Below, piece by piece: positions 19,067 to 37,776 of a stretch of 64,000 nucleotides of DNA (the stretch's first letter is position 1; every line of letters begins with the position of its first letter). The DNA is taken from assembly GCA_959601495.1 (NCBI GenBank), contig CAUGPT010000003.1:2222-66221 (forward strand). Direction: 5' to 3'. This stretch comes from an uncultured Eubacteriales bacterium (lineage in GTDB: Bacteria; Bacillota; Clostridia; Oscillospirales; CAG-272). The notes beneath the pieces are model-generated. The model saw only the letters and a list, made by a program, of their open reading frames with translations, did no database searches and was not told the origin of the DNA. The translations under genes and the position numbers were made by a program.

Positions 19067-19450
19067 ATCCACACCTCACATATCTTTTTATCCTCACAAA
19101 ACAAGTATAGGAAATTGCGTGGGACAAAAAGAGGACATCGACCGGCCCGCCCGTCAAAATCGGTTAGGCGATCAAGAGGCGACGCGGCGCACACTCCGTA
19201 CAACCTGAAAATGTTATCGGAGTGTTTCTTTAATCAGGGATATTTATTGGACATTAACCATGCCAAAATTATTTTTGTAAATTAGGAACACTCGGTGCTT
19301 GCTTGTGCCGTAAAAAAAGAGGTGCTGTCCCGGCTGCTCATCATCGATACCGTGGCCTTCACGGTACGGCCGTATATGGGATTTGACGAGTATATGGAAG
19401 TCTGCTACGCCTCCGCCCTCCTTGCCGACCGTCGGTTATCCGGCACTTTT

Positions 19451-19484
19451 AAAAAAGCGCGGAGCGTTTGCTCCGCGCTTTTTT
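19451..19484 (-). terminator. rho-independent terminator ending the T-box-1 operon
   Basis: AAAAAA-GCGCGGAGC-GTTT-GCTCCGCGC-TTTTTT lies directly after the oxidoreductase gamma subunit stop. Confidence 0.85.
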
Positions 19485-20014
19485 CAATATTCCATACCCC
19501 GGCGTATTGCCGCAAGGTTTGCTTCAAGCAGATCCTGATGGCGGGCGGAAACTACCTTTTTAAGAGCAGCCTCCGTATCATCCGAGGCGACCGCGCCGGT
19601 CTCTTTTATAAACTTGCCCACCATTATCATGTTGGCAAGAGACGGAGTGCCCAGCTCGTTTGCGAGAGCCGTTGCGGGCACATAAAAGACCTTTACATCG
19701 TCGCGGCGCACCTTGCGCTCAACAAGGGTCGAATCCACAAATATGCATCCGCCGCCGACAACTGCGTCCTCGTATTTGTCAAGGGACGGCAGGTTCATTG
19801 CGATGAGCACATCCGGCTTTGAAACGATGGGAGAGCCGACAGGCTCATCCGACAGGATAACGCTGCAGTTCGCGGTACCTCCGCGCATTTCGGGGCCGTA
19901 GGACGGCAGCCAGCTGAGCTGGCGTCCCTCCAGAAGTCCCTTGTACGCAAGAAACTTACCCGCAAACAGCACGCCCTGTCCGCCGAAACCGGCTATCAAA
20001 AGCTGTGTCGTCAT
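19484..20014 (-). CDS. 2-oxoacid:ferredoxin (acceptor) oxidoreductase, gamma subunit
   Basis: MTTQLLIAGFGGQGVLFAGKFLA...GPEMRGGTANCSV is the typical gamma-subunit signature. Confidence 0.85.
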   Translation of the reverse strand: MTTQLLIAGFGGQGVLFAGKFLAYKGLLEGRQLSWLPSYGPEMRGGTANCSVILSDEPVGSPIVSKPDVLIAMNLPSLDKYEDAVVGGGCIFVDSTLVERKVRRDDVKVFYVPATALANELGTPSLANMIMVGKFIKETGAVASDDTEAALKKVVSARHQDLLEANLAAIRRGMEY

Positions 20015-20766
20015 TTTGCTTCGCCCTCCTTTGCGCTTCTGTCCTTGTATACGCCCAGAGGATAGTAGGGTATCATCTTATCGTCTATCCATTTGAGCGC
20101 CGCCTCGGGCGTCATGCCCCAGTTCGTCGGGCAGGACGAAATTACCTCAATAAGAGAGAATCCCTTGCCCTCGACCTGGTTGCGGAACGCTTTTTCGATC
20201 GCCGCCTTTGCGGTCTTTACATTCTTTACATTATTCACGGCAACGCGCGCAAGATACTCGGGACCGTCCAGTGCCGAAAGCATTTCGCACACCTTTATGG
20301 GATAGCCCGCGGTCTTTACGTCGCGTCCGTAGGGAGAGGTCTGCGTGACCTGACCCGGCAGCGACGTGGGCGCCATCTGACCGCCCGTCATACCGTATAT
20401 TGCGTTGTTTACGAATATAACCGTGATGTTTTCGTTTCTCGTAGCGGCGTGAACAGTCTCCGCCATACCGATGGATGCAAGGTCGCCGTCGCCCTGATAC
20501 GTGAATATGATATTTTCCGGCATAGAGCGCTTGAGACCGGTGGCGACAGCCGGAGCACGTCCGTGCGCCGCCTCGACCATATCGCACGCAAAGTAATTAT
20601 ACGCCATAACTGCGCAGCCTACTGGAGCAACACCCACCGTTCTGCCCTCGATGCCGAGAGTGTCTATAGCCTCGGCGACAAGGCGGTGGATTATGCCGTG
20701 GGTGCAGCCGGGGCAGTAATGCAGTTCGGCGTCGGTAAGGCTGTGCGGTTTTTCAAATACTACCAT
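20011..20766 (-). CDS. 2-oxoacid:ferredoxin oxidoreductase, beta subunit (thiamine-pyrophosphate binding)
   Basis: YCPGCTHG...GDGDLASIGMAE...NNAIYGMTGGQ are TPP and Fe-S motifs. 4-nt overlap with the gamma subunit. Confidence 0.85.
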   Translation of the reverse strand: MVVFEKPHSLTDAELHYCPGCTHGIIHRLVAEAIDTLGIEGRTVGVAPVGCAVMAYNYFACDMVEAAHGRAPAVATGLKRSMPENIIFTYQGDGDLASIGMAETVHAATRNENITVIFVNNAIYGMTGGQMAPTSLPGQVTQTSPYGRDVKTAGYPIKVCEMLSALDGPEYLARVAVNNVKNVKTAKAAIEKAFRNQVEGKGFSLIEVISSCPTNWGMTPEAALKWIDDKMIPYYPLGVYKDRSAKEGEAK

Positions 20767-21827
20767 TATTTAAGCCCTCCGTTCATTTTTCTGATGCTTT
20801 CAAGTACCTCGTCGGGAGACGGTATCATACCGCCCGCTCTGAAGCAAAGCTCCACGGGACGGCTGCACTGACAAGAGAGGCGCACATCCTCTATCATCTG
20901 GCCCATGGAAAGCTCGACAGAGATAAATCCGCGAACGTGTGCGGCAGCTTCGGCAATTGCTTTTTTGGGGAACGGCCAAACCGTTATGGGTCTGATGAGT
21001 CCCGCCTTTATACCCTCGCGGCGTGCGGCGGTCACAGCGTTTTTCGCAACTCTTGCAGCAATGCCGAAGGCTACGAGGCAAATGTCCGCATCCTCCGTCA
21101 TGTAGCTTTCCCAACGCGCCTCGTTCTCCTCTATCTGCTTGTAACGCTCAAATCTTTCGATGTTTGTGCGCTCAAGCTCTTCGGGCACAAGATAGAGAGA
21201 GTTTACTATGTTGTGCTCTCTCTTCATACCGGTACCGGTAACAGCCCAGGGCTTTTCGCACGCAGCACTGCTCTCCTCGGGCAGCAGCACGGGCTCCATC
21301 ATCTGACCCATGGTGCCGTCCGCCAGAAGCATTGCGGGCACGCGGTATTTGTCGGAAAGATCAAATGCAAGCGCCGTAAGATCAGCCATTTCCTGAACGG
21401 AATCGGGTGTGAGCACTATGAGATGATAGTCTCCGTGTCCGCCGCCCTTTGTCGCCTGGAAGTAGTCGGACTGCGAGGGCTGGATGCCGCCCAGTCCGGG
21501 GCCGCCGCGCTGTACGTTTACTATAAGCGCGGGCAGGTCTGCGCCCGCTATGTAGGAAATGCCCTCCTGCTTAAGGGATACTCCGGGAGAGGAGGAAGAT
21601 GTCATAACTCTCTTGCCGCTTGCGGACACTCCGTACACCATGTTGATGGCGGATATTTCGCTTTCCGCCTGCAGAAATGTGCCGCCGATCTTCGGCATGC
21701 GCTTTGCCATATATGCCGCAAGCTCTGTCTGAGGCGTTATGGGATATCCGAAATAGTGACGGCAGCCTGCGCGTATCGCCGCCTCGGCGATAGCCTCGTT
21801 GCCCTTCATAAGTACCTTTTCACTCAT
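20766..21827 (-). CDS. 2-oxoacid:ferredoxin oxidoreductase, alpha subunit
   Basis: MKGNEAIAEAAIRAGCRHYFGYPITPQTE is a POR/KOR alpha-type N-terminus. Confidence 0.85.
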   Translation of the reverse strand: MSEKVLMKGNEAIAEAAIRAGCRHYFGYPITPQTELAAYMAKRMPKIGGTFLQAESEISAINMVYGVSASGKRVMTSSSSPGVSLKQEGISYIAGADLPALIVNVQRGGPGLGGIQPSQSDYFQATKGGGHGDYHLIVLTPDSVQEMADLTALAFDLSDKYRVPAMLLADGTMGQMMEPVLLPEESSAACEKPWAVTGTGMKREHNIVNSLYLVPEELERTNIERFERYKQIEENEARWESYMTEDADICLVAFGIAARVAKNAVTAARREGIKAGLIRPITVWPFPKKAIAEAAAHVRGFISVELSMGQMIEDVRLSCQCSRPVELCFRAGGMIPSPDEVLESIRKMNGGLK

Positions 21828-22065: not shown

Positions 22066-22722
22066 TTATTTCCAATATTTTTTCTGCAGCTCAAGCGGCA
22101 GAATATCGCCGTGCCCCGAAAGTTCTTCGGCAATATCGCGCCTTGCCGACGTAAACGCGACGGGCACGCCGGAAAGCTCCGAGAGCCGCTGTGCGGCACC
22201 GAAGGTCTCGATAACGTGCTGCGCCGCTGTTTCCTCGCCGAGATTTGAATTGTTTACTATACCCGTGACGGGCACGCCGCCCGCCGCCTCCACCTCGCGC
22301 ATGACGCAAAGAGCGTCCTCGGCGCTTCTTGTCAGCGGGCGGTAGAAGTTTACCACATACAGGTTTTCAAAATTGTTCTCTTCCCGTATGGCGGGCGCGA
22401 ATCTGCCGACGGCATATGCGCCGCTGTCGTCTCCGCCCACGTCTATGACCGCGTGCCGCTCTCTGTTCTGCACAACTGAGTACATCTCGGAGGGCAGAGT
22501 GGGCAGATCCACGTTTGTGTTCGCAAACGGCAGCGATATGACCGAAACGCCCGCGCGCCGCAGTTTTTCCTCGCTGTCTTTTGTGCGGAAATACGGGTTT
22601 ACTATGTCAAGATCGGCTATCACCGTGTCGTATCCGAGCGAGTGGAGCCGCAGGGCATAGTTTACCGCAATGTTAGTTTTGCCGCTGCCGTAATGGCCGC
22701 AGAAAAGAGTAAGCCTTTTCAT
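22066..22722 (-). CDS. MinD/ParA/CooC-like P-loop ATPase (ATP-binding protein)
   Basis: Deviant Walker A CGHYGSGKTNIAVN plus DLDIVNPYF. Embedded between ilvE and the oxidoreductase genes. Confidence 0.7.
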   Translation of the reverse strand: MKRLTLFCGHYGSGKTNIAVNYALRLHSLGYDTVIADLDIVNPYFRTKDSEEKLRRAGVSVISLPFANTNVDLPTLPSEMYSVVQNRERHAVIDVGGDDSGAYAVGRFAPAIREENNFENLYVVNFYRPLTRSAEDALCVMREVEAAGGVPVTGIVNNSNLGEETAAQHVIETFGAAQRLSELSGVPVAFTSARRDIAEELSGHGDILPLELQKKYWK

Positions 22723-23816
22723 TATTTGTTAAGACCGAGGGGGTATGTCCAGCCCATAAAGTCCTCGACGGTGCCGGTCTGTATGCCGTACAAAGTGTCG
22801 TAAAGCTTCTGGGAAAGCGCGCCGACCTTGCCGTCGGCAACGGTCATATCCTTGCCCTCGATGCAAAGCCAGCCGATAGGAGAAATTACCGCCGCGGTGC
22901 CGCTTGCGAATATCTCCTTAAGTGTGCCGTCCTTGCTCGCAGCCTGAATTTCGTCAATGGAGAGCTTGCGCTCGCTGACCTTGACGCCCCAGTGCTTCAG
23001 CAGTCTTATAACGGAATCTCTCGTAATTCCGGGGAGTATCGTGCCGGAGTCCAGAGGCGCGGTTATCACCTCGTCGCCGATATAGAAGAACGCGTTGGAC
23101 GTGCCTATCTCCTCAACATACTTGTGCTCTGCAGCGTCAAGCCACAAAACGTCCTTGCAGTTGTACTTCATTGCGTCCTGAGAAGCGCGCATACCGCCGC
23201 CGTAGTTGCCGCCGACCTTGGCATATCCCGTGCCGCCGCGCGCCGCGCGGATGTATTTATCCTGAACATATATACGCGTGGTTGAAAGTCCGCCGTCGTT
23301 TGCGGCATAGTAAGAACCTGTGGGGCTGAGAATTATCATAAAGCGGTAGTGCTTTGCGGGAAGCACGGAGAAGGAGACCTCATCGCCGAAAATGAAGGGG
23401 CGAACATACAGTGCCGTACCGGGTGCATGAGGTACCCAGTCGATATCCTCTTTGATAACGGCGCGTACCGCCGCAACAAGAAGATCGTCGGGCAGCTCGG
23501 GAATGCACATACGCTCGTTTGTTCTCTTCATTCTCGCAACGTTCATGTCGGGTCTGAAAAGCTGAATGTCGCCGTCGGGAGTGCGGTATGCCTTCATACC
23601 CTCGAACATCATCTGCGCGTAGTGCAGAACGCAGGATGCGGGCTCGATGAGAATAGGCTCGTGGGGAACGACTCTGCCGTCGTGCCAGCCCTCGCCCTCA
23701 TCATAGTCCATTACAAACATATGATCCGTAAAGTATTTCGCAAAGCCCAGTTTTGTTTCGTCCTCGGGACGCTTTTTGGGATGTGTCGTTCTCGTTACGG
23801 GAAAAACGTAGTTCAT
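22722..23816 (-). CDS. ilvE: branched-chain amino acid aminotransferase
   Basis: 364 aa class IV aminotransferase pattern: LHYAQMMFEGMKAYR...GGTGYAKVGGNY...GITRDS. Confidence 0.85.
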   Translation of the reverse strand: MNYVFPVTRTTHPKKRPEDETKLGFAKYFTDHMFVMDYDEGEGWHDGRVVPHEPILIEPASCVLHYAQMMFEGMKAYRTPDGDIQLFRPDMNVARMKRTNERMCIPELPDDLLVAAVRAVIKEDIDWVPHAPGTALYVRPFIFGDEVSFSVLPAKHYRFMIILSPTGSYYAANDGGLSTTRIYVQDKYIRAARGGTGYAKVGGNYGGGMRASQDAMKYNCKDVLWLDAAEHKYVEEIGTSNAFFYIGDEVITAPLDSGTILPGITRDSVIRLLKHWGVKVSERKLSIDEIQAASKDGTLKEIFASGTAAVISPIGWLCIEGKDMTVADGKVGALSQKLYDTLYGIQTGTVEDFMGWTYPLGLNK

Positions 23817-23846: not shown

Positions 23847-24635
23847 TTATATACTGTATAATTCGCGTCTGCGGTCGGCAAACACGTTTATGCTGTCTCG
23901 TATACCGCCGAGCACCGACATATCGCAGTCGGCGCAGATTATCTCCTCGCCGCATCCCGCTTTTGACAGAACGCCGCCAAGAGGATCGTATATGACGGAA
24001 GAGCCGCCGTATACCGTCTCGCCGGCAGTTCCGCAGGAATTGCACAGCGCAAGAAACATCTGATTTTCTATTGCCCGCGCTCTTGTAAGCGCTTCAAGCT
24101 GCATCGTGCGGACACTCGGCCACTGCGAAACAAGGAAAAGCACGTCAAGGGGGACCTCGGCGCTCATTGTGCGAGCCGCCTCGGGAAAGCGGATGTCATA
24201 GCATATAAGCACGCCGCACCGCACGCCGTCAAGGGTGAAGGTGCAGAAATGATCGCCCGCCCTGAAATACTCATGCTCGCCCATGGGGGTGAAAAGATGA
24301 GTTTTGTCGTACGATGCAATGCACTCGCCGCTTCTGTCAAAAACATACGAAGTGTTGTACACTTTTCCGCCGCGGGCGTCCGAAACGCTGCCCGCCACTA
24401 TGTTAACGCCGAATTCTTTCGCCGCGCCGCCGATCTCGCGTCTGACCCTCTCGCCGTCCTTGTCGGAAAGAGCGGAAAGCCCCTCTTTCGGGAAAAAGCC
24501 CGTGTTCCACGTTTCGGGAAGCACACAGACATCGCAGCCGTCGGCGCATGCTTTTTCGATAAGCCGTTTTGCGGCATCGAAATTTTCATCCGGCGCCGCA
24601 AGCCGCATATTCATCTGAATACATGATATTTTCAT
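23847..24635 (-). CDS. carbon-nitrogen hydrolase family protein (nitrilase / omega-amidase-like)
   Basis: The Glu-Lys-Cys triad context is present: VLPETWNTGF, YDKTHLF, VLICYDIRFPE. Confidence 0.8.
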   Translation of the reverse strand: MKISCIQMNMRLAAPDENFDAAKRLIEKACADGCDVCVLPETWNTGFFPKEGLSALSDKDGERVRREIGGAAKEFGVNIVAGSVSDARGGKVYNTSYVFDRSGECIASYDKTHLFTPMGEHEYFRAGDHFCTFTLDGVRCGVLICYDIRFPEAARTMSAEVPLDVLFLVSQWPSVRTMQLEALTRARAIENQMFLALCNSCGTAGETVYGGSSVIYDPLGGVLSKAGCGEEIICADCDMSVLGGIRDSINVFADRRRELYSI

Positions 24636-27014: not shown

Positions 27015-27300
27015 AACGAAAAAAGCACCCGTCCCAAAGCTTTGGATTACTTTGAGACGAGTGCCGAAACATCAGCTACCCGCGGTACCACTCAAATTGC
27101 GCCGTAAATAGACGCCTCTCAGGCTCTGTCAAGCCGTATGCATTTCACGCAGCAGTTACGGGAAGGCTCTACTTGCCCGCATGGGCTTTCTTCCTTCCGG
27201 CTCAGAAGCTACAACCGACGCACCGTTTCCGACAGCTCACACCGACCGCTGCCTCTCTGCAGGACGTTTTGCATCAATACTCTTCGTCTTTGCCTTTACA
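27015..27300 (-). promoter_or_regulatory. T-box riboswitch leader 1 (Stem I with AGAGAG/GGTG distal elements, Stem III, T-box sequence, terminator)
   Basis: Minus strand contains AATTTGAGTGGTACCGCGGG (plus 27079-27098). The terminator GCACTCGTCTCAAAG...CTTTGGGACGGGTGCTTTTTT lies at plus 27019-27064. The 5' end has a GA-motif and AGAGTA S-turn. Confidence 0.85.
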
Positions 27301-27305
27301 TTCTC

Positions 27306-27334
27306 AGTATAATCCAACACTATTCAGTTGTCAA
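27306..27334 (-). promoter_or_regulatory. sigma-A promoter of T-box leader 1
   Basis: Minus strand: TTGACA, 17 nt, TATACT. Only 20 nt downstream of the paralog-2 stop codon. Confidence 0.7.
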
Positions 27335-29649: not shown

Positions 29650-29925
29650 AATTAAAAAACCCGTCCCAAGAAAAACTCTTGAGACGGGAAACTTACTTAT
29701 TACCCGCGGTACCACTCAAATTGCGTCTTTCGACGCCACTCAGACTCTGACAAGCCGTATGCATTTACGCAGCAGTAACGTAAAGAACTAAGGCGGACCG
29801 CCCTCATTCTTTCAGCTCGGAAGTGATGGGAAATTAAACACCTGGGCTGTCGGGATCGCACCGTCCCCGACTCTCTGAAAGCTTGCATGCTTTTCCGTCT
29901 TCGTCATAGCCTTTATTTATTCTTT
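29650..29925 (-). promoter_or_regulatory. T-box riboswitch leader 2
   Basis: AATTTGAGTGGTACCGCGGGTA (plus 29701-29722), Stem III GCGTC-GAAA-GACGC, and terminator TTTCCCGTCTCAAGAG...CTTGGGACGGGTTTTTT (plus 29654-29690). Confidence 0.85.
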
Positions 29926-29931
29926 TTCTAA

Positions 29932-29960
29932 AGTATAGCACCGCGCGGCGGGCGTGTCAA
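29932..29960 (-). promoter_or_regulatory. sigma-A promoter of T-box leader 2
   Basis: Minus strand: TTGACA, 17 nt, TATACT. Confidence 0.7.
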
Positions 29961-30035: not shown

Positions 30036-32504
30036 CTATTCAATGCCGAGAAGCTTTACGGTCTCCTCGCGCATTTTATATTTGAGTATCTTGCCTGCAG
30101 CGTTCATGGGGAACGTTTTTGTAAATATAAAGTACCTGGGAACCTTGTGCGTTGCCATGCCGGACATACCGAAGGCTTTCATCTCCGTCTCGTCGGCACT
30201 CTCGCCGTCGTTCAGTATGACCCATGCGCAGGCCTCCTCGCCGTACTTCTTGTCCGGTACGCCCACGACCTGTACGTCGCGCACCTTGGGATTTGTGAGG
30301 TAATACTCCTCTATCTCGCGGGGGTATATGTTCTCGCCGCCGCGGATTATCATGTCCTTAAGGCGCCCCGTCACCTTGTAATATCCGTCGGGGGTGCGGC
30401 AGCATATATCTCCGGAGTGCAGCCAGCCCTCGCTGTCGATAGCCTGTGCGGTAGCACGGGGCATTTTGTAGTAGCCCTTCATAACGTTGAAGCCGCGAAC
30501 CACAAATTCGCCCGCTTCCCCGTCGCCGAGAACGGCGCCGGTCTCGGGGTCGATTATCCTGCACTCAACTCCGGGGAAAGCGCTGCCAACGGTCTCAACT
30601 CTGTGGTCGAGATCCTCATTGACTTCTCCCATGGTGCATCCGGGGGAGGACTCTGTCTGACCGTAGACGGAGAGTATTTCCGTCATATTCATTTCCGCTG
30701 CCGCACGGCGCATAAGCTCGGGCGGGCAGTTTGCGCCCGCCATAATGCCAGTACGCATATATGAGAAATCCGTTTTCGCAAAATCCTCATGCGCAAACAT
30801 TGCGATAAACATTGTAGGCACGCCGTTGAAGCAGGTTATCTTCTCCGCCGTGATGCACGCAAGCGAGGACTTGGGCGAGAAATACGGCAGTGGCGAGAGC
30901 GTGCCGCCGTGGGTCATCATGGACGTCATGGAAAGTACCATGCCGAAGCAGTGGAACATGGGCACCTGTATCATCATACGGTCCGCCGTTGACATATCCA
31001 TTCTGTCGCCTATGATCTTGCCGTTGTTTATTATGTTGCTGTGCGTCAGCATGACTCCCTTGGGAAAGCCCGTTGTGCCGGAAGTGTACTGCATATTGGC
31101 AACGTCGCCGGAGCGGACCATGGACGCGCGCCTGCGTACCTCCTCGCGGGGAACCTCGGCGCCCCTCTCGAGCATTTCGTTCCACTCAAGGCAGCCGGGC
31201 ATATTAAAGCCGACGGTCACAACGTTTCTCAGAAACGGCAGCCGCTTTGCGTAAAGGGGCGCGTCGGGCTTTTTCGTTTCAAGCTCGGGGCACAGATCGC
31301 GGATGATCTTGCCGTAGTCCGTATCCTTGCAGTTCTCTATCATTACAAGCGTATGAGTGTCGGACTGGCGCAGAAGGTATTCTATCTCGTGGGTCTTGTA
31401 GGCGGTGTTGACCGTTACAAGCACCGCGCCTATCTTCACAGCCGCCCAGAAGGACAGAAACCACTCAGGCACGTTCGTAGCCCACACAGCGACATGATGC
31501 CCGGGCTTTACGCCGAGGGCTATGAACGCCGCGGCGACCTCATCCACGTCGCGGCGGAACTGGGAATACGTGCGGGTGTAGTCAAGCGTCGTGTATCTGA
31601 AGGCGTACTGGTCCGGATATTTTTCCGCCATAACGTCCAGCACCTGAGAGAACGTCATATCAAGCACATCGTATTTCTTCCAGGGAAATGTACCCGTGCC
31701 CGCGCGGTTCGTATACAGCACTTCCCTGCGGGACGTTCTCGACACCTCGCCCATATAGCTGCAGAACTGTGTCAGAACTATATCGGGATCGTCGATCTCG
31801 TCGTTCCACGCCGCGCATACAAACGAATCGTAGTTGAGAGAGGCAAGCGCTTCGGTAAACTCTCCGCAGGGCAGCTCTCCCTCTCCGATAAGCACGTTGA
31901 CTCCGTCGGCACTGCGGTCTCCCAGTCGGACATAGCGGATGTACGCGCCAAGGTTCGTAATTGTATCCTCCGCGCTTTCATGCGTATCGAAATAAGTGCT
32001 GCGTACATCCCAGCACGCGCCGAGGGCGGCGCTTGCGCATCCGTTGAGAAACGCCACGGTACGCTTGGTGTCGGCAAATCTGCCCACGGTCTCTATAAGA
32101 ATTTCAACATCCTTTTTCTCAGCCGCAGCGCATACCTTTGAGAGCTTTTCGGCAAGACGGCTGTCAGCCTCACCGTCGCTGTCCGCTCCGCAGGCGCGGA
32201 TGATCACACGTCCCGCGCCGGAGGAGTGCGCCATATCAATATATCTTTTCAGAAGCTCGGGCGTAACGTCACCGCCGTCCGCGTCAAACGGACAGGTGAG
32301 CGCCGCCAGCTCAAGCCCTCTGTTATAAAGCTTTCTCTTTGCCTCCGAAACATGCTCCGGACGCAGGATGCTGTCGGAATGACGAATTCTTTCGTCCTCC
32401 GCGTCGGAAATCTCAATGCCAGAAAAGCCGTAGTCGTCGGCATATCTGCAAAGCGACAAAAACGAAGCAAGCCTTACGTTTTCCGTTGAAAAAGTGAGCT
32501 TCAC
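30036..32504 (-). CDS. xylose-isomerase-like TIM barrel (sugar phosphate isomerase/epimerase family) fused to an AMP-dependent acyl-CoA synthetase/ligase
   Basis: The first ~270 aa resemble AP_endonuc_2 / TIM barrel proteins. The remainder carries YTSGTTGFPKGV, GYYK, HSGD, GRLKDMIIRGGENIYPREIE and GKILK. The GTG start overlaps the upstream stop (GTGA). Confidence 0.8.
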   Translation of the reverse strand: MKLTFSTENVRLASFLSLCRYADDYGFSGIEISDAEDERIRHSDSILRPEHVSEAKRKLYNRGLELAALTCPFDADGGDVTPELLKRYIDMAHSSGAGRVIIRACGADSDGEADSRLAEKLSKVCAAAEKKDVEILIETVGRFADTKRTVAFLNGCASAALGACWDVRSTYFDTHESAEDTITNLGAYIRYVRLGDRSADGVNVLIGEGELPCGEFTEALASLNYDSFVCAAWNDEIDDPDIVLTQFCSYMGEVSRTSRREVLYTNRAGTGTFPWKKYDVLDMTFSQVLDVMAEKYPDQYAFRYTTLDYTRTYSQFRRDVDEVAAAFIALGVKPGHHVAVWATNVPEWFLSFWAAVKIGAVLVTVNTAYKTHEIEYLLRQSDTHTLVMIENCKDTDYGKIIRDLCPELETKKPDAPLYAKRLPFLRNVVTVGFNMPGCLEWNEMLERGAEVPREEVRRRASMVRSGDVANMQYTSGTTGFPKGVMLTHSNIINNGKIIGDRMDMSTADRMMIQVPMFHCFGMVLSMTSMMTHGGTLSPLPYFSPKSSLACITAEKITCFNGVPTMFIAMFAHEDFAKTDFSYMRTGIMAGANCPPELMRRAAAEMNMTEILSVYGQTESSPGCTMGEVNEDLDHRVETVGSAFPGVECRIIDPETGAVLGDGEAGEFVVRGFNVMKGYYKMPRATAQAIDSEGWLHSGDICCRTPDGYYKVTGRLKDMIIRGGENIYPREIEEYYLTNPKVRDVQVVGVPDKKYGEEACAWVILNDGESADETEMKAFGMSGMATHKVPRYFIFTKTFPMNAAGKILKYKMREETVKLLGIE

Positions 32505-33901
32505 GCCTGTTCCTCCTCAAAGATTATCTTGTTGAGAGCGTTTACGTACGCTCTTATACTTGCGCCTACAATATCCGTTGAAAGACCGTTGCCGGAGAAC
32601 AGCTTTCCGCCGCTGCGAAGCCTTACTACGGCGTCGCCCAGCGCTTCCTTGCCCTGCGTTACGGCGCGTATCTGAAATGCGTCCAGCTCATAGTGATGAC
32701 CGACGCACTGCTCTATCGCACGGAACGCCGCGTCAATAGGTCCGTCGCCCGTTGCGACGCCCACGGACTTTTCTCCCGCGCGTACCATGGCAACACTTGC
32801 CATGGCGGACGTTATGTTGCTGCTTGTTATATTGTAGCTTTCAAGATGATATGCGGAGGGCGCCTGCATTGCGTTTGACGCAATGATAGCCTCAAGCTCG
32901 GCAGCCCCCACGGAGCCTTTGCGGGCGCATACATCCATAAGCGCGTCATATACCTTGCCGTCGTCCTCGGCGCTCAGCGTGTATCCCAGTTTTTTTGCCG
33001 CTTCGCTGACCTGTGCGGCAGTGCTGTCACCGTGGAGATATATACCGGCGTCGCCGTCGTTCTCCCGCTCCGCAGTGTCAGAGGGATGTGCCGCCTCAAC
33101 GCCGCGCAGAAGCGACGCAACGTCGCTGTAAAGCTCGGTAAGCTTCAGCGATGTGGCAACTCCCATTTCCTCGCCGCGCGCCTCAAGCATTTTCGCAAAT
33201 TTCACGGTATTGAGCGCGTCATCTCCCGCAACGGCGACCTTTACGCCCGACGCACCCGCGCGTATGGCGGCGGCGGCGCAGGCGGCGCCCATGCTGATAG
33301 CGTCGGAGGGACGCACATACACATCTGCCCCGCAGCTTTCCTTTACATATTTGACAAGCGAAGCGATCTCCTCCGGCATTGCCCTGCCCGCGTCGTCGCA
33401 GAGGGTCACGATCTGCGCACCCGCATCCGCGGCACACTTCGCAGCCTTGCACAGAAACGCAACGTCGGCGCGGGTCGCGTCAAGCGCCGCAAACTCCACC
33501 TTGGGGCATTTTGCTTTCGCGGCAGTGCACAGACGGGTGATAAAGTCTGCCATTTTCGCTTCTTTCATATGGTAGCCGTACTCCATTGTAACGGTAGATA
33601 CGGGCAGCGCTATCTGCAGGCAGGGGTCCTTCGCGCCGCGAACGCACTCCCACGCGGCGTCGATCGTTTCCTCGCTGTCGCCCGCGGGGATCGTGACCGT
33701 CGCGTTCTTCACACCCGACGATATGGTTTTATATATTATAGTATCTTCTTTCGGACAGCGCACCGGGGCAAGCTCGATTGCGCCCATGCCGACGGCGTCC
33801 ATGCACGCGGCGACCGCGGTCTTTTCGCGGAAAAGAAGCTCCGCGCCCCTGCTGCGCGCAAGCGCACTGAGAGTATAATCGACAACAACTGTTTTTTTCA
33901 T
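32501..33901 (-). CDS. 2-isopropylmalate synthase / homocitrate synthase family protein (LeuA-like; catalytic motifs appear degenerate, LeuA-dimer regulatory domain retained)
   Basis: HMGL-like barrel followed by the C-terminal ATGDGPIDAAFRAIEQ...GNGLSTDIVGASIRAYVNALNKI. Start at ATG 33901 behind GAGG. The 40-aa track extension runs into the T-box terminator. Confidence 0.75.
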   Translation of the reverse strand: MKKTVVVDYTLSALARSRGAELLFREKTAVAACMDAVGMGAIELAPVRCPKEDTIIYKTISSGVKNATVTIPAGDSEETIDAAWECVRGAKDPCLQIALPVSTVTMEYGYHMKEAKMADFITRLCTAAKAKCPKVEFAALDATRADVAFLCKAAKCAADAGAQIVTLCDDAGRAMPEEIASLVKYVKESCGADVYVRPSDAISMGAACAAAAIRAGASGVKVAVAGDDALNTVKFAKMLEARGEEMGVATSLKLTELYSDVASLLRGVEAAHPSDTAERENDGDAGIYLHGDSTAAQVSEAAKKLGYTLSAEDDGKVYDALMDVCARKGSVGAAELEAIIASNAMQAPSAYHLESYNITSSNITSAMASVAMVRAGEKSVGVATGDGPIDAAFRAIEQCVGHHYELDAFQIRAVTQGKEALGDAVVRLRSGGKLFSGNGLSTDIVGASIRAYVNALNKIIFEEEQA

Positions 33902-33925: not shown

Positions 33926-34195
33926 TAGAAAAACCCGCAGAAACCTCTCGGTTTCTGCGGGGTGACTTAACAAATATAAAGCCACGGTACCACCCGCATT
34001 GCCGCTCGCGCGGCCGCTCACAGGCTCAATAAAGCCTTCGGTCTGTCACGGGACCTCCCGGAATCCCTTACACTGCATTTTCGGGGATCCTGCTCCGATA
34101 GGAGACAGCATACGCGGATCCATGCCGTCTCGCACCGACCGACGGCTCTCTGAAAGGCTTGCCGCGAATGCTTAATATCATCATCGCATTTCTTA
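33926..34195 (-). promoter_or_regulatory. T-box riboswitch leader 3 (probable Leu, CUC specifier candidate)
   Basis: K-turn GATGA, AGAGAG bulge, distal loop GGTCGGTGCGA, T-box AATGCGGGTGGTACCGTGGC (plus 33981-34000), and terminator CCCCGCAGAAACC-GAGA-GGTTTCTGCGGG-TTTTT (plus 33926-33964). Confidence 0.85.
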
Positions 34196-34200
34196 CGGTG

Positions 34201-34229
34201 ATTATAGCAAAGAAGCCATGCTTTGTCAA
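34201..34229 (-). promoter_or_regulatory. consensus sigma-A promoter of T-box leader 3
   Basis: Minus strand: TTGACA, 17 nt, TATAAT (perfect hexamers). Confidence 0.75.
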
Positions 34230-34331
34230 CAAAATTGCGGCAAAATTCCCATTTTTGTGTCAAGTGACAAAAATAGCGAAAAAGGCACCCCGCGCGCGAT
34301 AATTTTGCACATGGAAAACACGGCGCGGCGC

Positions 34332-34451
34332 GGGCTGCCGCACATTCCCTTCTCACGGCGTGGGCTGCCGCACATTCCCTTCTCACGGCACGGCGCGGGC
34401 TGCGCACATTCCCTTCTCACGGCGCGGGCTGCCGCACATTTTCTTCTCCAC
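34332..34451. repeat. four tandem copies of a ~29-nt GC-rich unit (period 30-35 nt)
   Basis: GGGCTGCCGCACATTCCCTTCTCACGGCG at 34332 and 34362, then variants at 34397 and 34427. Only 1-6 nt separate the units. Confidence 0.8.
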
Positions 34452-35280: not shown

Positions 35281-35853
35281 ATGGCATCAGACAGCGCCGT
35301 TTCCGCTATCAGGAGAACAAAAGCAAAAAAGATCATTTTTCTTATAATCGGATGGATGATCGCGGCTTTCAACGGGTCATTGGCACTTATATGTTCGTTC
35401 GCCACCGGACACAAGGATAAATCTTCTGTTTTTCTGTTATTTCTCTTTTTGTCTATCGCGTCAGTGGGAGTGCTGTTTATTGTGATAGGCACAAAAGCAA
35501 AGCATTTGCTCCGCAATTATTATGATTACTCGGCAAGGCTGTCCGCCGACCCGAACGGCTCCATAGACCTATTGGCGGCAGCGCTGGGCAAGCCCGCATC
35601 CGATCTTGCAAAAGAACTTTCGGAAATGATAACTCTGGGCTTTTTCCCGGGAGCGTTTATTGACACCAAGTACAACCGCGTGGTCTTCACGGGCGGTGAT
35701 CCGACAAAAGCAAAAGCTGCCGTCGGGCAAGCATCCGGACATTCGTCAAGATATGTTATGGTGAAATGCAAAGGATGCGGGGCAACGAACAAGATACTTT
35801 CGGGCACCGTCGGCGAATGTGAATACTGCGGCTCACGCCTGTCCGCAAACTGA
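35281..35853 (+). CDS. membrane protein with a C-terminal zinc ribbon (hypothetical)
   Basis: Two TM segments, a soluble linker domain, and the C-terminus VKCKGCGATNKILSGTVGECEYCGSRL. RBS AGAGGA. Confidence 0.7.
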   Translation: MASDSAVSAIRRTKAKKIIFLIIGWMIAAFNGSLALICSFATGHKDKSSVFLLFLFLSIASVGVLFIVIGTKAKHLLRNYYDYSARLSADPNGSIDLLAAALGKPASDLAKELSEMITLGFFPGAFIDTKYNRVVFTGGDPTKAKAAVGQASGHSSRYVMVKCKGCGATNKILSGTVGECEYCGSRLSAN

Positions 35854-35867
35854 GGAGAAAAACAGAA

Positions 35868-36512
35868 TTGCAGAAAAAAGGTTCTTCATGGGGCATCATA
35901 GCGCTGTGGTTCGTTTTGTTTTTCCCCGTCGCCGTTGTTCTGACAGTCAAAAAGATGAGCGGAGAAAAGCTCAGCTACATCCAAAACGGAAAAGCGCTGC
36001 GCATCATCGGGTACATATTGCTCGGTTTCGCCGCCCTGTATCTTGTGCTTGCGCTGACAGGAAATCTTAAGACCGAAGACGGCTCAAGCATTGTCGGCGG
36101 AGTTATTGTTGCCGAGGCTGTTTTCGGCGGCGGTGCACTGTGCGTGTTCTACGGTACGGCTTTTATAAGACGGGGCAAAAAATACAAAAGATACATATCA
36201 GTCATAAATACAAGCAATGATCTCATCATCGACAATATCGCGTCGCAGATACCCACAACTTATGATAAAGCGGTGAGAGATATCCAATCCATGCTGGACG
36301 ACGGATTTTTCATGAACGCCAGGCTGGATCTCGGCCAAAGAGAGCTTATCATGCCGAGGAGATCGGCAAACCGCGGCGCCGCCGGTCCGGATCGGACCTG
36401 CGTGAGTGCACCAAAGCAGACACTCTGCGTAAAGTGTAAAAATTGCGGAGCAACAAATACCGTTGTTTCGGGTGAAAGAAATGAATGTGAATACTGCGGT
36501 TCGCCGCTGTAG
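35868..36512 (+). CDS. membrane protein with a C-terminal zinc ribbon (paralog of the preceding gene)
   Basis: TTG start after GAGGAG. Several TM segments, then VKCKNCGATNTVVSGERNECEYCGSPL. Confidence 0.65.
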   Translation: MQKKGSSWGIIALWFVLFFPVAVVLTVKKMSGEKLSYIQNGKALRIIGYILLGFAALYLVLALTGNLKTEDGSSIVGGVIVAEAVFGGGALCVFYGTAFIRRGKKYKRYISVINTSNDLIIDNIASQIPTTYDKAVRDIQSMLDDGFFMNARLDLGQRELIMPRRSANRGAAGPDRTCVSAPKQTLCVKCKNCGATNTVVSGERNECEYCGSPL

Positions 36513-36528
36513 ATCGGAGAAATGATCA

Positions 36529-36888
36529 ATGAAATGTCAGAATTGCGGTACGGAGTTTGAAGGAAACTTCTGTACAAACTGCGGCTCTCCCGCCGCGGGA
36601 CCGACGGCTGTGCAGCGCGCGCCGATCGGCGGCGCCGGCTTGGTATGCAAAAAGTGCGGCAGCAGTAGTATCAGTGTTCAGGTCGTGAATGAAGTAAAAC
36701 TGAAAAACAAGCGCCACGGCTGCGCCTGGTGGATATTCGTCGGCTGGTGGTGGGTCCCCTGCAAATGGCTGTTCTTTACATTGCCCGCGCTGATCTTCAA
36801 GATCTTCAGCCACAAAAAGCAGGAAGCCGTAAACAAACAGAAAACTATATGTGTATGTCAGAATTGCGGATATACATGGGAAAAATAA
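36529..36888 (+). CDS. zinc-ribbon / Trp-rich TM / zinc-ribbon small protein (hypothetical)
   Basis: MKCQNCGTEFEGNFCTNCGSP..., KKCGSS..., the hydrophobic segment WWIFVGWWWVPCKWLFFTLPALIF, and CVCQNCGYTW. Confidence 0.7.
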   Translation: MKCQNCGTEFEGNFCTNCGSPAAGPTAVQRAPIGGAGLVCKKCGSSSISVQVVNEVKLKNKRHGCAWWIFVGWWWVPCKWLFFTLPALIFKIFSHKKQEAVNKQKTICVCQNCGYTWEK

Positions 36889-36903
36889 ACGGAGGAAAGA
36901 AAA

Positions 36904-37776
36904 ATGAAATGTAACTATTGCGGAACAGAGTTTGAGGGCAAGTTCTGCCCCAATTGCGGAGCACCTAACGGTGAAACCGCGGCAGCAGCCGCAGCCGGAC
37001 AGCAGCCGTCGGAAAACGGCGCAAACGGCGCGCAGCCCGAAATTCAGGCAGCGGCGCCCGAAGCGCCCGCGCCTGCCGCGAAAGCGAAAAAATCCATATT
37101 CAAAAGATGGTGGTTCTGGGTCATCATCGGCGTAGCTTCGATCGGTATTCTCGGCGCAGCGGTCGGCGGCGGAGATGACGACAAAACGGTAAAGCCGAAG
37201 GATACATCCTCGTCTCAGGTCGCGGACAATAAGGACAGCGGCGAAAACAGCAGCGCTGACGAGGCTGCGGTAACCGTTGTTGATTTCTCCTCAATGAGCA
37301 AGGCGGATATCGAAGCATGGGCAGCGCAGAATGACGTTACCGTTACATTCAGCGAAGATTACTCCGACAGCGTTGAGATCGGAGCGCTAGTCAGCCAGAG
37401 CAAAAAGGCTGACGAGACCGTAAAAGCCGGCGCCACCGTCAATGTCGTGCTTTCAAAGGGAAAGAAGCCTTCCGCCGAGTACCTCAACGCTCTGAAAAAG
37501 GCTGAATCCTATTCCAAGCTCATGCATATGTCGAAAAAGGCGATCTACGATCAGCTCACATCGGAATACGGCGAGCAGTTCCCTGCCGATGCGGCACAGT
37601 ACGCGATAGATAATATGACAGCCGATTGGTACGCAAACGCTCTTGAAAAAGCAAAATCATACCGCGACACCATGAATATGTCCAAAAACGCCATCTATGA
37701 TCAGCTGATCTCCGAATACGGTGAGCAGTTCACAGCGGACGAAGCTCAGTACGCTGTCGATCACATGGACGATTGA
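36904..37776 (+). CDS. zinc ribbon - TM - PASTA-like - 2x Ltp-like (host cell surface-exposed lipoprotein family) repeat protein
   Basis: MKCNYCGTEFEGKFCPNCGAP, then the TM segment WWFWVIIGVASIGILGAAV. Next comes a PASTA-like segment VTVVDFSSMSKADIEAWAAQNDV...GATVNVVLSKG. Two repeats follow: NALKKAESYSKLMHMSKKAIYDQLTSEYGEQFPADAAQYAID and NALEKAKSYRDTMNMSKNAIYDQLISEYGEQFTADEAQYAVD. Confidence 0.75.
   Translation: MKCNYCGTEFEGKFCPNCGAPNGETAAAAAAGQQPSENGANGAQPEIQAAAPEAPAPAAKAKKSIFKRWWFWVIIGVASIGILGAAVGGGDDDKTVKPKDTSSSQVADNKDSGENSSADEAAVTVVDFSSMSKADIEAWAAQNDVTVTFSEDYSDSVEIGALVSQSKKADETVKAGATVNVVLSKGKKPSAEYLNALKKAESYSKLMHMSKKAIYDQLTSEYGEQFPADAAQYAIDNMTADWYANALEKAKSYRDTMNMSKNAIYDQLISEYGEQFTADEAQYAVDHMDD

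Follow-up and report, generated by a model that had tools for sequence, protein, structure and literature searches.

Type I 2-isopropylmalate synthase (IPMS, LeuA; for example E. coli b0074 and Listeria 3ewb) combines a (beta/alpha)8 HMGL-like barrel with a linker and a LeuA_dimer regulatory domain, and the GxGP loop of such LeuA-type regulatory domains is an effector site. HisZ, a catalytically dead paralog of HisRS, is the allosteric subunit of the short-form ATP phosphoribosyltransferase HisG, and both the complex and its inhibition by histidine have been shown experimentally. Branched-chain volatile fatty acids (isoacids), long known as growth factors for fiber-degrading rumen bacteria, also serve as feed additives; Allison, Bryant and co-workers reportedly found in the 1960s-70s that rumen bacteria carboxylate them reductively to branched-chain amino acids. 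Here we analyze a stretch of 64,000 nucleotides (nt) from an uncultured Eubacteriales bacterium of the CAG-272 lineage (GCA_959601495.1, contig CAUGPT010000003.1, positions 2,222 to 66,221), hereafter the window, and within it a LeuA-like protein of 466 amino acids (aa) encoded directly upstream of a fusion of a triosephosphate isomerase (TIM) barrel with an acyl-CoA ligase. Sequence comparison indicates that this protein is a non-catalytic paralog of IPMS with an almost unchanged regulatory domain. It represents a widespread, unannotated LeuA-derived pseudoenzyme family that sits in a probable triple-T-box isoacid-assimilation module.

The LeuA-like protein is homologous to LeuA over its full length and shares with it the GxGPxDA, GK(D/E)ALG and S/TDI motifs as well as a leucine regulon. 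However, it is about 50 aa shorter, has the Arg-Asp, Glu, HxH and GERAGN elements replaced and the GIGE and AFAHSSGIHQDG subdomain deleted, and its gene always adjoins an acyl-CoA ligase gene, not leuBCD. Its N-terminus reads MKKTVVVDYTLSALARS; a GTG start at 34021, which would give a longer open reading frame (ORF), was rejected because the extension is leader RNA. Pfam recognizes HMGL-like (PF00682; aa 19-259, 7e-26) and LeuA_dimer (PF08502; aa 333-459, 9e-32, profile positions 4-130 of 131). All NCBIfam LeuA equivalogs match as well, but below their cutoffs (best score 228 bits vs 532), which is why database homologs carry the name ‘hypothetical protein’.

The AlphaFold2 (AF2) model of the protein (mean predicted local distance difference test score, pLDDT, of 79.5; barrel blocks mostly 86-97) contains eight barrel strands. 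In Foldseek searches it superposed on the N-domain of Listeria LeuA (3ewb) with a target-normalized template-modeling (TM) score of 0.91 and a root-mean-square deviation of 1.8 A, and gave global matches only, at TM about 0.5, to leucine-bound M. tuberculosis LeuA (3fig). Sequence and profile searches of the PDB returned no solved type-I regulatory domain onto which leucine contacts could be mapped. The model thus describes what appears to be a folded LeuA-type barrel devoid of LeuA chemistry.

The earlier note, made from the letters of the window, had claimed that the DTTLRDGEQ, HxHxD(L)G and GIGERAGN motifs are lost, and had proposed inspecting the active-site columns of a profile alignment. 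Pairwise phmmer comparison with 3ewb, a family-profile search of the PDB and a MAFFT alignment with E. coli LeuA agreed on the register and bore out the loss. Relative to E. coli LeuA, DTTLRDGEQ is DYTLSALAR in the window protein, replacing the Arg for the 2-oxoacid and the metal Asp; TSPMH is VSTVT; SCEDAGR is AALDATR, with the Glu replaced; PDTVG is CDDAG; HTHDDLG is RPSDAIS, which removes the HxH metal ligands of strand 7; and NGIGERAGN is AG----DDALN. A deletion of ~30 residues, which had escaped the first inspection, takes out AFAHSSGIHQDG; in LeuA this segment is subdomain I, which bears the catalytic His and the acetyl-CoA site.

We scored these columns in 183 family members, of which 79 come from genome loci, one is the window protein and 103 are representatives at 50% identity (E. 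coli numbering throughout). The metal Asp (D14) is retained in 8 members, and the Arg position of D-T-T-L-R is mostly Lys (97) or Arg (38). Among the residues listed for the 183 members, His occurs at neither HxH position (H202, H204), the first holding Q, E, R or others and the second S. The E141 column is mostly Leu, GIGE is gapped in 171-182 members and HSSGIHQ in 178-182, while the scaffold motifs DATR and D.G and residue S103 are kept. The substitutions and deletions in the catalytic motifs are common to all sampled distant members. A rescue of the active site by shifted register was rejected, as the phmmer, profile and MAFFT alignments concur and two motifs are physically deleted; no other register restores the ligands.

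We are all but certain, then, that the LeuA-like protein is not an IPMS-type synthase. Its significant matches to the HMGL-like and LeuA models, together with a leucine regulon that would suit LeuA, could speak for a surviving isopropylmalate, citramalate or homocitrate synthase whose ligands are shifted in register or contributed by the partner TIM barrel. We give this next to no chance: beyond the agreed register, the missing HxH His (0/183), the scarce metal Asp and the deleted GIGE and HSSGIHQ segments, all NCBIfam equivalog cutoffs are missed by >300 bits, and in the main clade the partner TIM domain, too, appears to lack two of the four canonical ligands. Two other proteins of LeuA length (P0310 and P0324; 505-516 aa) carry partly degenerate DTTLCDGEQ, IRAYNDLG and GIGKRAGC motifs and a scrambled HSSGIHQDG region; they could represent LeuA decay at an intermediate stage or of independent origin.

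A word-indexed search listed 120 homologs of 460-512 aa, the two nearest being 98% and 73% identical to the window protein and the others 54-61%. An exhaustive search of representatives brought the family roughly 100 more clusters at the 50% identity level (about 453-497 aa), the most distant at about 26-35% identity. Proteins of ordinary LeuA length (503-516 aa), which align in two stretches, came up only from about 195 bits. The family is thus large (>100 clusters at 50% identity, hundreds of species), and its members stem from Oscillospirales-type Clostridia in gut metagenomes of ruminants and humans.

No part of the protein is more conserved than the regulatory domain: mean pairwise identity, taken over the 80 closest members, is 80% there, 62% in the barrel and 57% in the linker. 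The earlier description of a well-preserved C-terminal domain thus holds, and the motifs it quoted are present. G425, G427 and D483 are retained in all 183 members, G462 in 182, D430 in 175 and P428 in 174. G462 is the position of the feedback-resistant G462D change that renders E. coli LeuA insensitive to leucine. Conservation of this residue and of the GxGP loop supports, but does not prove, retained leucine binding.

The barrel carries invariant motifs of its own (LLFREKT, KEDTI, YHxKxxKM, CDDAG and GADGVK). Given these and the 62% identity within the family, the barrel appears to be under purifying selection, not decaying, and so presumably does something. One reading of such conservation is that the remodeled barrel binds a pathway metabolite—isovaleryl-CoA, CoA or 4-methyl-2-oxopentanoate—and either channels acyl-CoA from the ligase to the oxidoreductase described below or performs metal-independent catalysis, with leucine still acting as a gate through the regulatory domain. 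Its family-specific invariant polar motifs and the retained DATR and D.G scaffold motifs of a CoA/2-oxoacid-binding fold would fit such a function. Against it stands the loss or deletion of every HMGL-like superfamily metal ligand and of the His-bearing subdomain, and we regard the proposal as unlikely.

The gene downstream encodes the 822-aa fusion. Its ligase core motifs A3, A5, A8 and A10 are intact (YTSGTTGFPKG, YGQTE, GRLKDMIIRGGENIYP and AAGK), and the ligase half matches AMP-binding (PF00501, 1e-91) and AMP-binding_C (PF13193, 6e-13); against PRK12583 the fusion scores 650 bits (cutoff 832). The stop codon of the LeuA-like gene overlaps the GTG start of the fusion (GTGA), and a GAGGAGG ribosome-binding site lies just upstream, so that the translational coupling noted at first sight is real as an overlap and comes with its own ribosome-binding site. 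Across 80 genome loci collected with the LeuA-like protein as seed, the fusion follows immediately downstream in 80/80; identity is about 80% for the ligase domain, about 53% for the LeuA-like protein and about 50% for the TIM domain. A metagenome search seeded on the TIM domain recovered 71 loci with a TIM identity of at least 43%, and the LeuA-like gene lies directly upstream in 67/67 that hold upstream DNA (the other 4 have <50 nt). A word-indexed search with the TIM domain gave 64 hits, mostly contig-truncated fragments, and no sign of a stand-alone TIM family. The LeuA-like gene is, in short, tightly and almost universally paired with the fusion gene.

Strict pairing and translational coupling are also what a purely structural or chaperone partner would show, one that stabilizes or oligomerizes the fusion barrel to barrel and uses its C-terminal domain for dimerization, not leucine sensing; LeuA_dimer is indeed described by Pfam as a dimerization domain too. 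In LeuA, however, the effector site is built from the GxGPxD and GKxALG loops, and their near-invariance in this family exceeds what dimerization needs, which makes this account distinctly improbable.

The TIM domain of the fusion has a confidently predicted fold (pLDDT 90.6) that resembles ketose 3-epimerases and UlaE (TM about 0.75, about 17% identity). In the main clade, the canonical set of four metal ligands (E, D, H, E) appears from the alignment to be altered at two positions, D to N and H to R: WD/WN..R stands for D..H and YVRLGD for vHl.D, with the fourth ligand mapped without certainty. A distant clade of fusions from bioreactor and anaerobic digester metagenomes (L153-L161; TIM 31-34% and ligase 63-67% identical) retains the canonical xylose-isomerase-type motifs LWDIHH, YVHMKD and YEW. 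Such canonical E/D-H/H/E motifs hint at an ancestral activity of the assembly, which would favor a metabolite-binding role for the LeuA-like barrel.

Two members of this clade (L156, L158) have a LeuA-like gene upstream of the fusion. In five others (L154, L157, L159, L160, L161) a T-box directly precedes the fusion, with CUC readable in the four alignments shown, and no LeuA-like gene was found in the available flank (up to 3.5 kb on each side). As a leucine T-box drives the fusion without the LeuA-like gene in these five loci, the ligase would be the effector of the leucine regulon and the LeuA-like protein an accessory. That the ligase works without it in some lineages also counts against a catalytic or channeling barrel. 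Of the earlier suggestion that the LeuA-like protein is a subunit of the ligase, the obligatory form therefore falls and an accessory form remains: the comparisons fit a widespread but dispensable accessory, better suited to a regulator than to a pathway enzyme.

The LeuA-like gene and the fusion are preceded by a T-box leader with its own promoter and terminator (Table 1). Scored against Rfam RF00230, the leader reaches 90.3 bits (E 6e-20), just short of the gathering score of 93, and a default scan is therefore blind to it; all three T-boxes of the window (83-90 bits) are missed in this way and were found with an E-value threshold. Orthologous leucine leaders, by comparison, reach or exceed the gathering score in 9/9 tested cases (93.3-135.6 bits), and TTGAC..TATAAT-like elements align upstream of them. 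We compared 77 upstream regions (76 of the 80 genome loci plus the window). The pattern AGAGA...CUC...GAGC is present in 63, mostly with a canonical GAA-CUC-A loop; variants are CUG (Leu) in L014 and L046 and CCC (a Pro codon) in L062. The window leader has C after the CUC, not the usual purine. The CUC proposed initially as a leucine specifier aligns with the specifier position of these relatives, and the leader is best described as a Leu-specific T-box, its specifier assigned by comparison and its tRNA response predicted. It shares with ilv-leu/leuS-type T-boxes the Stem I with AGAGA and specifier loop, the T-box sequence and the terminator/antiterminator arrangement, with tRNA-Leu(GAG) as the corresponding tRNA, but governs a ligase and a pseudoenzyme where those govern a synthetase, a transporter or an ilv-leu operon. 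Just upstream of the promoter, a GC-rich unit of roughly 30 nt (CGGCGCGGGCTGCCGCACATTCCCTTCTCA) occurs four times in tandem (34319-34448).

In seven loci (L002, L003, L004, L012, L013, L016 and L019; for instance L004 5730-5970) a promoter, a short ORF and a terminator take the place of the T-box. The ORF is conserved and rich in Ile and Leu (M..FFTANILLLIAIIILAI.., MNMxxFFTANILLLIAIIILAI..), and the unit resembles a classic attenuator based on an Ile/Leu leader peptide. Where downstream DNA suffices (six of the seven loci), the operon runs directly into the genes for the branched-chain aminotransferase IlvE, a P-loop protein and a 2-oxoisovalerate-type 2-oxoacid:ferredoxin oxidoreductase (VOR). 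T-box and leader peptide would be two independent regulatory solutions, which points to branched-chain amino acid supply as the common purpose.

Table 1. Coordinates of the leucine unit and neighboring features in the window, in the order of transcription
Feature	Position (nt)	Strand	Details
Sigma-70-type promoter of the leucine unit	34201..34229	-	TTGACA-17-TATAAT; 12/12, TG extended
T-box leader, CUC (Leu) specifier	33955..34193	-	Rfam RF00230; specifier 34102-34104; T-box sequence GGGUGGUACCG
Intrinsic terminator of the T-box, attenuation element	33934..33961	-	12-bp stem, then U-run
LeuA-like pseudoenzyme, 466 aa	32501..33901	-	ORF, Pfam, NCBIfam, alignments, AF2/Foldseek
LeuA-like: degenerate HMGL-like TIM barrel	33116-33901		aa 1-262
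LeuA-like: linker			aa 263-330
LeuA-like: LeuA_dimer regulatory domain	32504-32911		aa 331-466
TIM-barrel::ligase fusion, 822 aa	30036..32504	-	xylose-isomerase-like TIM barrel (aa 1-270); AMP-forming acyl-CoA ligase (aa ~280-822)
T-box leader, AUC (Ile) specifier	29677..29916	-	E 3e-17; promoter 29932-29960, terminator 29660-29688
HTH-cupin-AMP ligase (MbcS-like), 755 aa	27354..29621	-	best NCBIfam match MbcS
T-box leader, GUA (Val) specifier	27050..27299	-	E 3e-17; promoter 27306-27334, terminator 27024-27065
Second HTH-cupin-AMP ligase (MbcS-like), 780 aa	24663..27005	-	best NCBIfam match MbcS
Carbon-nitrogen hydrolase (Nit/omega-amidase-like)	23847..24635	-	
IlvE, branched-chain amino acid aminotransferase	22722..23816	-	NF009897 447 bits vs cutoff 307
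P-loop protein, 218 aa	22066..22722	-	GHYGSGKTN; conserved, no family assignment
VOR delta subunit, 2x[4Fe-4S] ferredoxin type, 66 aa	21840..22040	-	two CxxCxxCxxxCP motifs
VOR, 2-oxoisovalerate-type 2-oxoacid:ferredoxin oxidoreductase	19484..21827	-	NF005507 554 bits vs cutoff 399 (VorB)
VOR subunits	20766-21827; 20011-20766; 19484-20014	-	VorB alpha; thiamine pyrophosphate (TPP) beta; gamma
Terminator after VOR	about 19448-19480		

Downstream of the leucine unit, in a context that the earlier note had missed, two further ligases follow, each behind a T-box that again has its own promoter and terminator. Their Ile and Val specifiers hold up in comparison: at other loci, leaders of HCL1-type ligases read ..AUC(A/C)CUUC.GAGC and those of HCL2-type ligases ..GUAGUU.C.GAGC. 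Both window ligases match MbcS of Staphylococcus aureus best among NCBIfam models, at 433-440 bits against an equivalog cutoff of 850, and both have an XRE-type helix-turn-helix (HTH) and a cupin in their N-terminal ~230 aa. The HTH-cupin region, which sets them apart from MbcS, may be a built-in sensor or repressor, doing for the isoleucine and valine branches what we propose the LeuA-like protein does for leucine. Purified S. aureus MbcS activates 2-methylbutyrate and isobutyrate, and isovalerate poorly (PMC10026030). The Ile and Val T-boxes fit this preference, and we propose the 755-aa protein as the 2-methylbutyrate-CoA ligase of the isoleucine branch and the 780-aa protein as the isobutyrate-CoA ligase of the valine branch. 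The poor handling of isovalerate by MbcS would also explain why the leucine branch has a ligase of a different, PRK12583-like subfamily, one that carries a TIM barrel.

The remaining genes of the cluster would complete a route from acid to amino acid. IlvE, the P-loop protein and VOR adjoin the LeuA-like/ligase pair in 11-12 of the 80 loci, and 30 of the 80 have an HTH-cupin ligase no more than 6 kb away. The P-loop protein, found in 12/80 loci and just upstream of VOR where that stretch is present, might serve VOR as an ATPase, in its maturation or as an accessory. The carbon-nitrogen hydrolase is adjacent in L028 and L031, too; a speculative role would be removal of 2-oxoglutaramate, should glutamine be the amino donor, pulling transamination forward. 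Apart from ilvE, the 64-kb window holds no canonical leu or ilv genes. On the plus strand, 35281-37776 comprises four consecutive genes whose small products, of membrane or secreted type, each contain paired zinc-ribbon-like CxxC motifs (for example CKGCGATN...CEYCGS); the last product also has PASTA and Ltp lipoprotein domains, and this set appears unrelated to the LeuA-like protein.

Since AMP-forming ligases drive activation and T-boxes respond to starvation, the direction would be biosynthetic, from acid through acyl-CoA and 2-oxoacid to amino acid. We consider it probable that the cluster makes Leu, Ile and Val from isovalerate, 2-methylbutyrate and isobutyrate, respectively. The likeness to rumen isoacid physiology is close: acid activation, a ferredoxin-dependent 2-oxoacid synthase and a transaminase are all encoded, in Clostridia of ruminants and the gut. 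MbcS-type ligases, on the other hand, feed fatty-acid synthesis in S. aureus, and isovaleryl-CoA primes iso-odd fatty acids, so the LeuA-like/ligase pair could serve priming of branched-chain membrane lipids, or catabolism, in place of leucine synthesis. Control by tRNA-Leu charging, the parallel Ile and Val T-boxes, the linkage to VOR and IlvE and the activating direction of AMP-forming ligases all speak for amino-acid synthesis, unlike the lipid synthesis served by MbcS, and leave this alternative very improbable.

On these grounds, we propose the LeuA-like protein to be a non-catalytic, leucine-sensing accessory subunit of the leucine-branch ligase, through which leucine inhibits that ligase. 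Under leucine limitation, uncharged tRNA-Leu would stabilize the antiterminator, and a single transcript would yield the LeuA-like protein and the ligase, translated together. The ligase would convert isovalerate to isovaleryl-CoA, which VOR, drawing on ferredoxin, would reductively carboxylate to 4-methyl-2-oxopentanoate for transamination to leucine by IlvE—a route with no obvious missing chemical step for a remodeled LeuA-like barrel to supply. The LeuA-like protein would bind the ligase, probably via the two degenerate barrels, and as leucine recovers it would bind the regulatory-domain dimer and damp the ligase. Fast end-product inhibition of the first, ATP-consuming step would thereby be added to the slower T-box control, just as feedback on LeuA itself controls the first committed step of de novo leucine synthesis. 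We infer four elements of this scheme: that isovalerate is the substrate, that the two proteins form a physical complex, that leucine is bound and that the inhibition is allosteric.

A working analogy is offered by HisZ, likewise a dead pathway-related paralog beside its partner, with end-product feedback on the first committed step proposed here for the LeuA-like protein. Fold and partner are unrelated, and whereas complex and inhibition are experimental facts for HisZ, we infer both for the LeuA-like protein. A leucine-sensing or scaffolding subunit would fit all the comparative evidence. Several points weigh against it, however. The function proposed for the fusion, isovalerate-CoA ligase, is read from its context alone. 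A signal passed in trans from a LeuA regulatory dimer to an ANL ligase would have no known precedent. Expression is already leucine-dependent because of the T-box. Neither the best 150 representatives nor the 120 listed homologs include a LeuA-like::TIM::ligase triple fusion of the Rosetta-stone kind. Finally, a pure sensor leaves the invariant barrel motifs unexplained, and these may point to a ligand site or to some new activity. On balance, we hold the case for a leucine-sensing subunit that inhibits the ligase to be about evenly poised between right and wrong.

In the literature we searched, we found neither the pairing of LeuA-like and ligase genes nor an IPMS pseudoenzyme nor T-box control of isoacid ligases described, and nothing that links rumen isoacid physiology to this gene set, to its T-box regulation or to a LeuA-like component. 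As a tentative proposal, somewhat more likely wrong than right, gut and rumen Clostridia would share a module of three amino-acid-specific, T-box-gated ligases in which a dead LeuA serves as trans-acting leucine-feedback subunit of an ANL ligase; no regulatory pseudoenzyme derived from IPMS would have been known before it, and the module would provide the genetic basis of the classic ‘isoacid’ requirement. For genome-based work, the LeuA-like protein could be mistaken for LeuA and lead to wrong calls of leucine prototrophy in metabolic models of metagenome-assembled genomes from gut and rumen. For the physiology of these bacteria, the cluster offers a concrete gene set for the conversion of isoacids to amino acids, with three T-box-gated ligases, VOR and IlvE. 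The LeuA-like family itself would exemplify exaptation of an enzyme as a regulator, in which a feedback domain has outlived its own catalytic domain and has apparently been redeployed on a different first-committed step.

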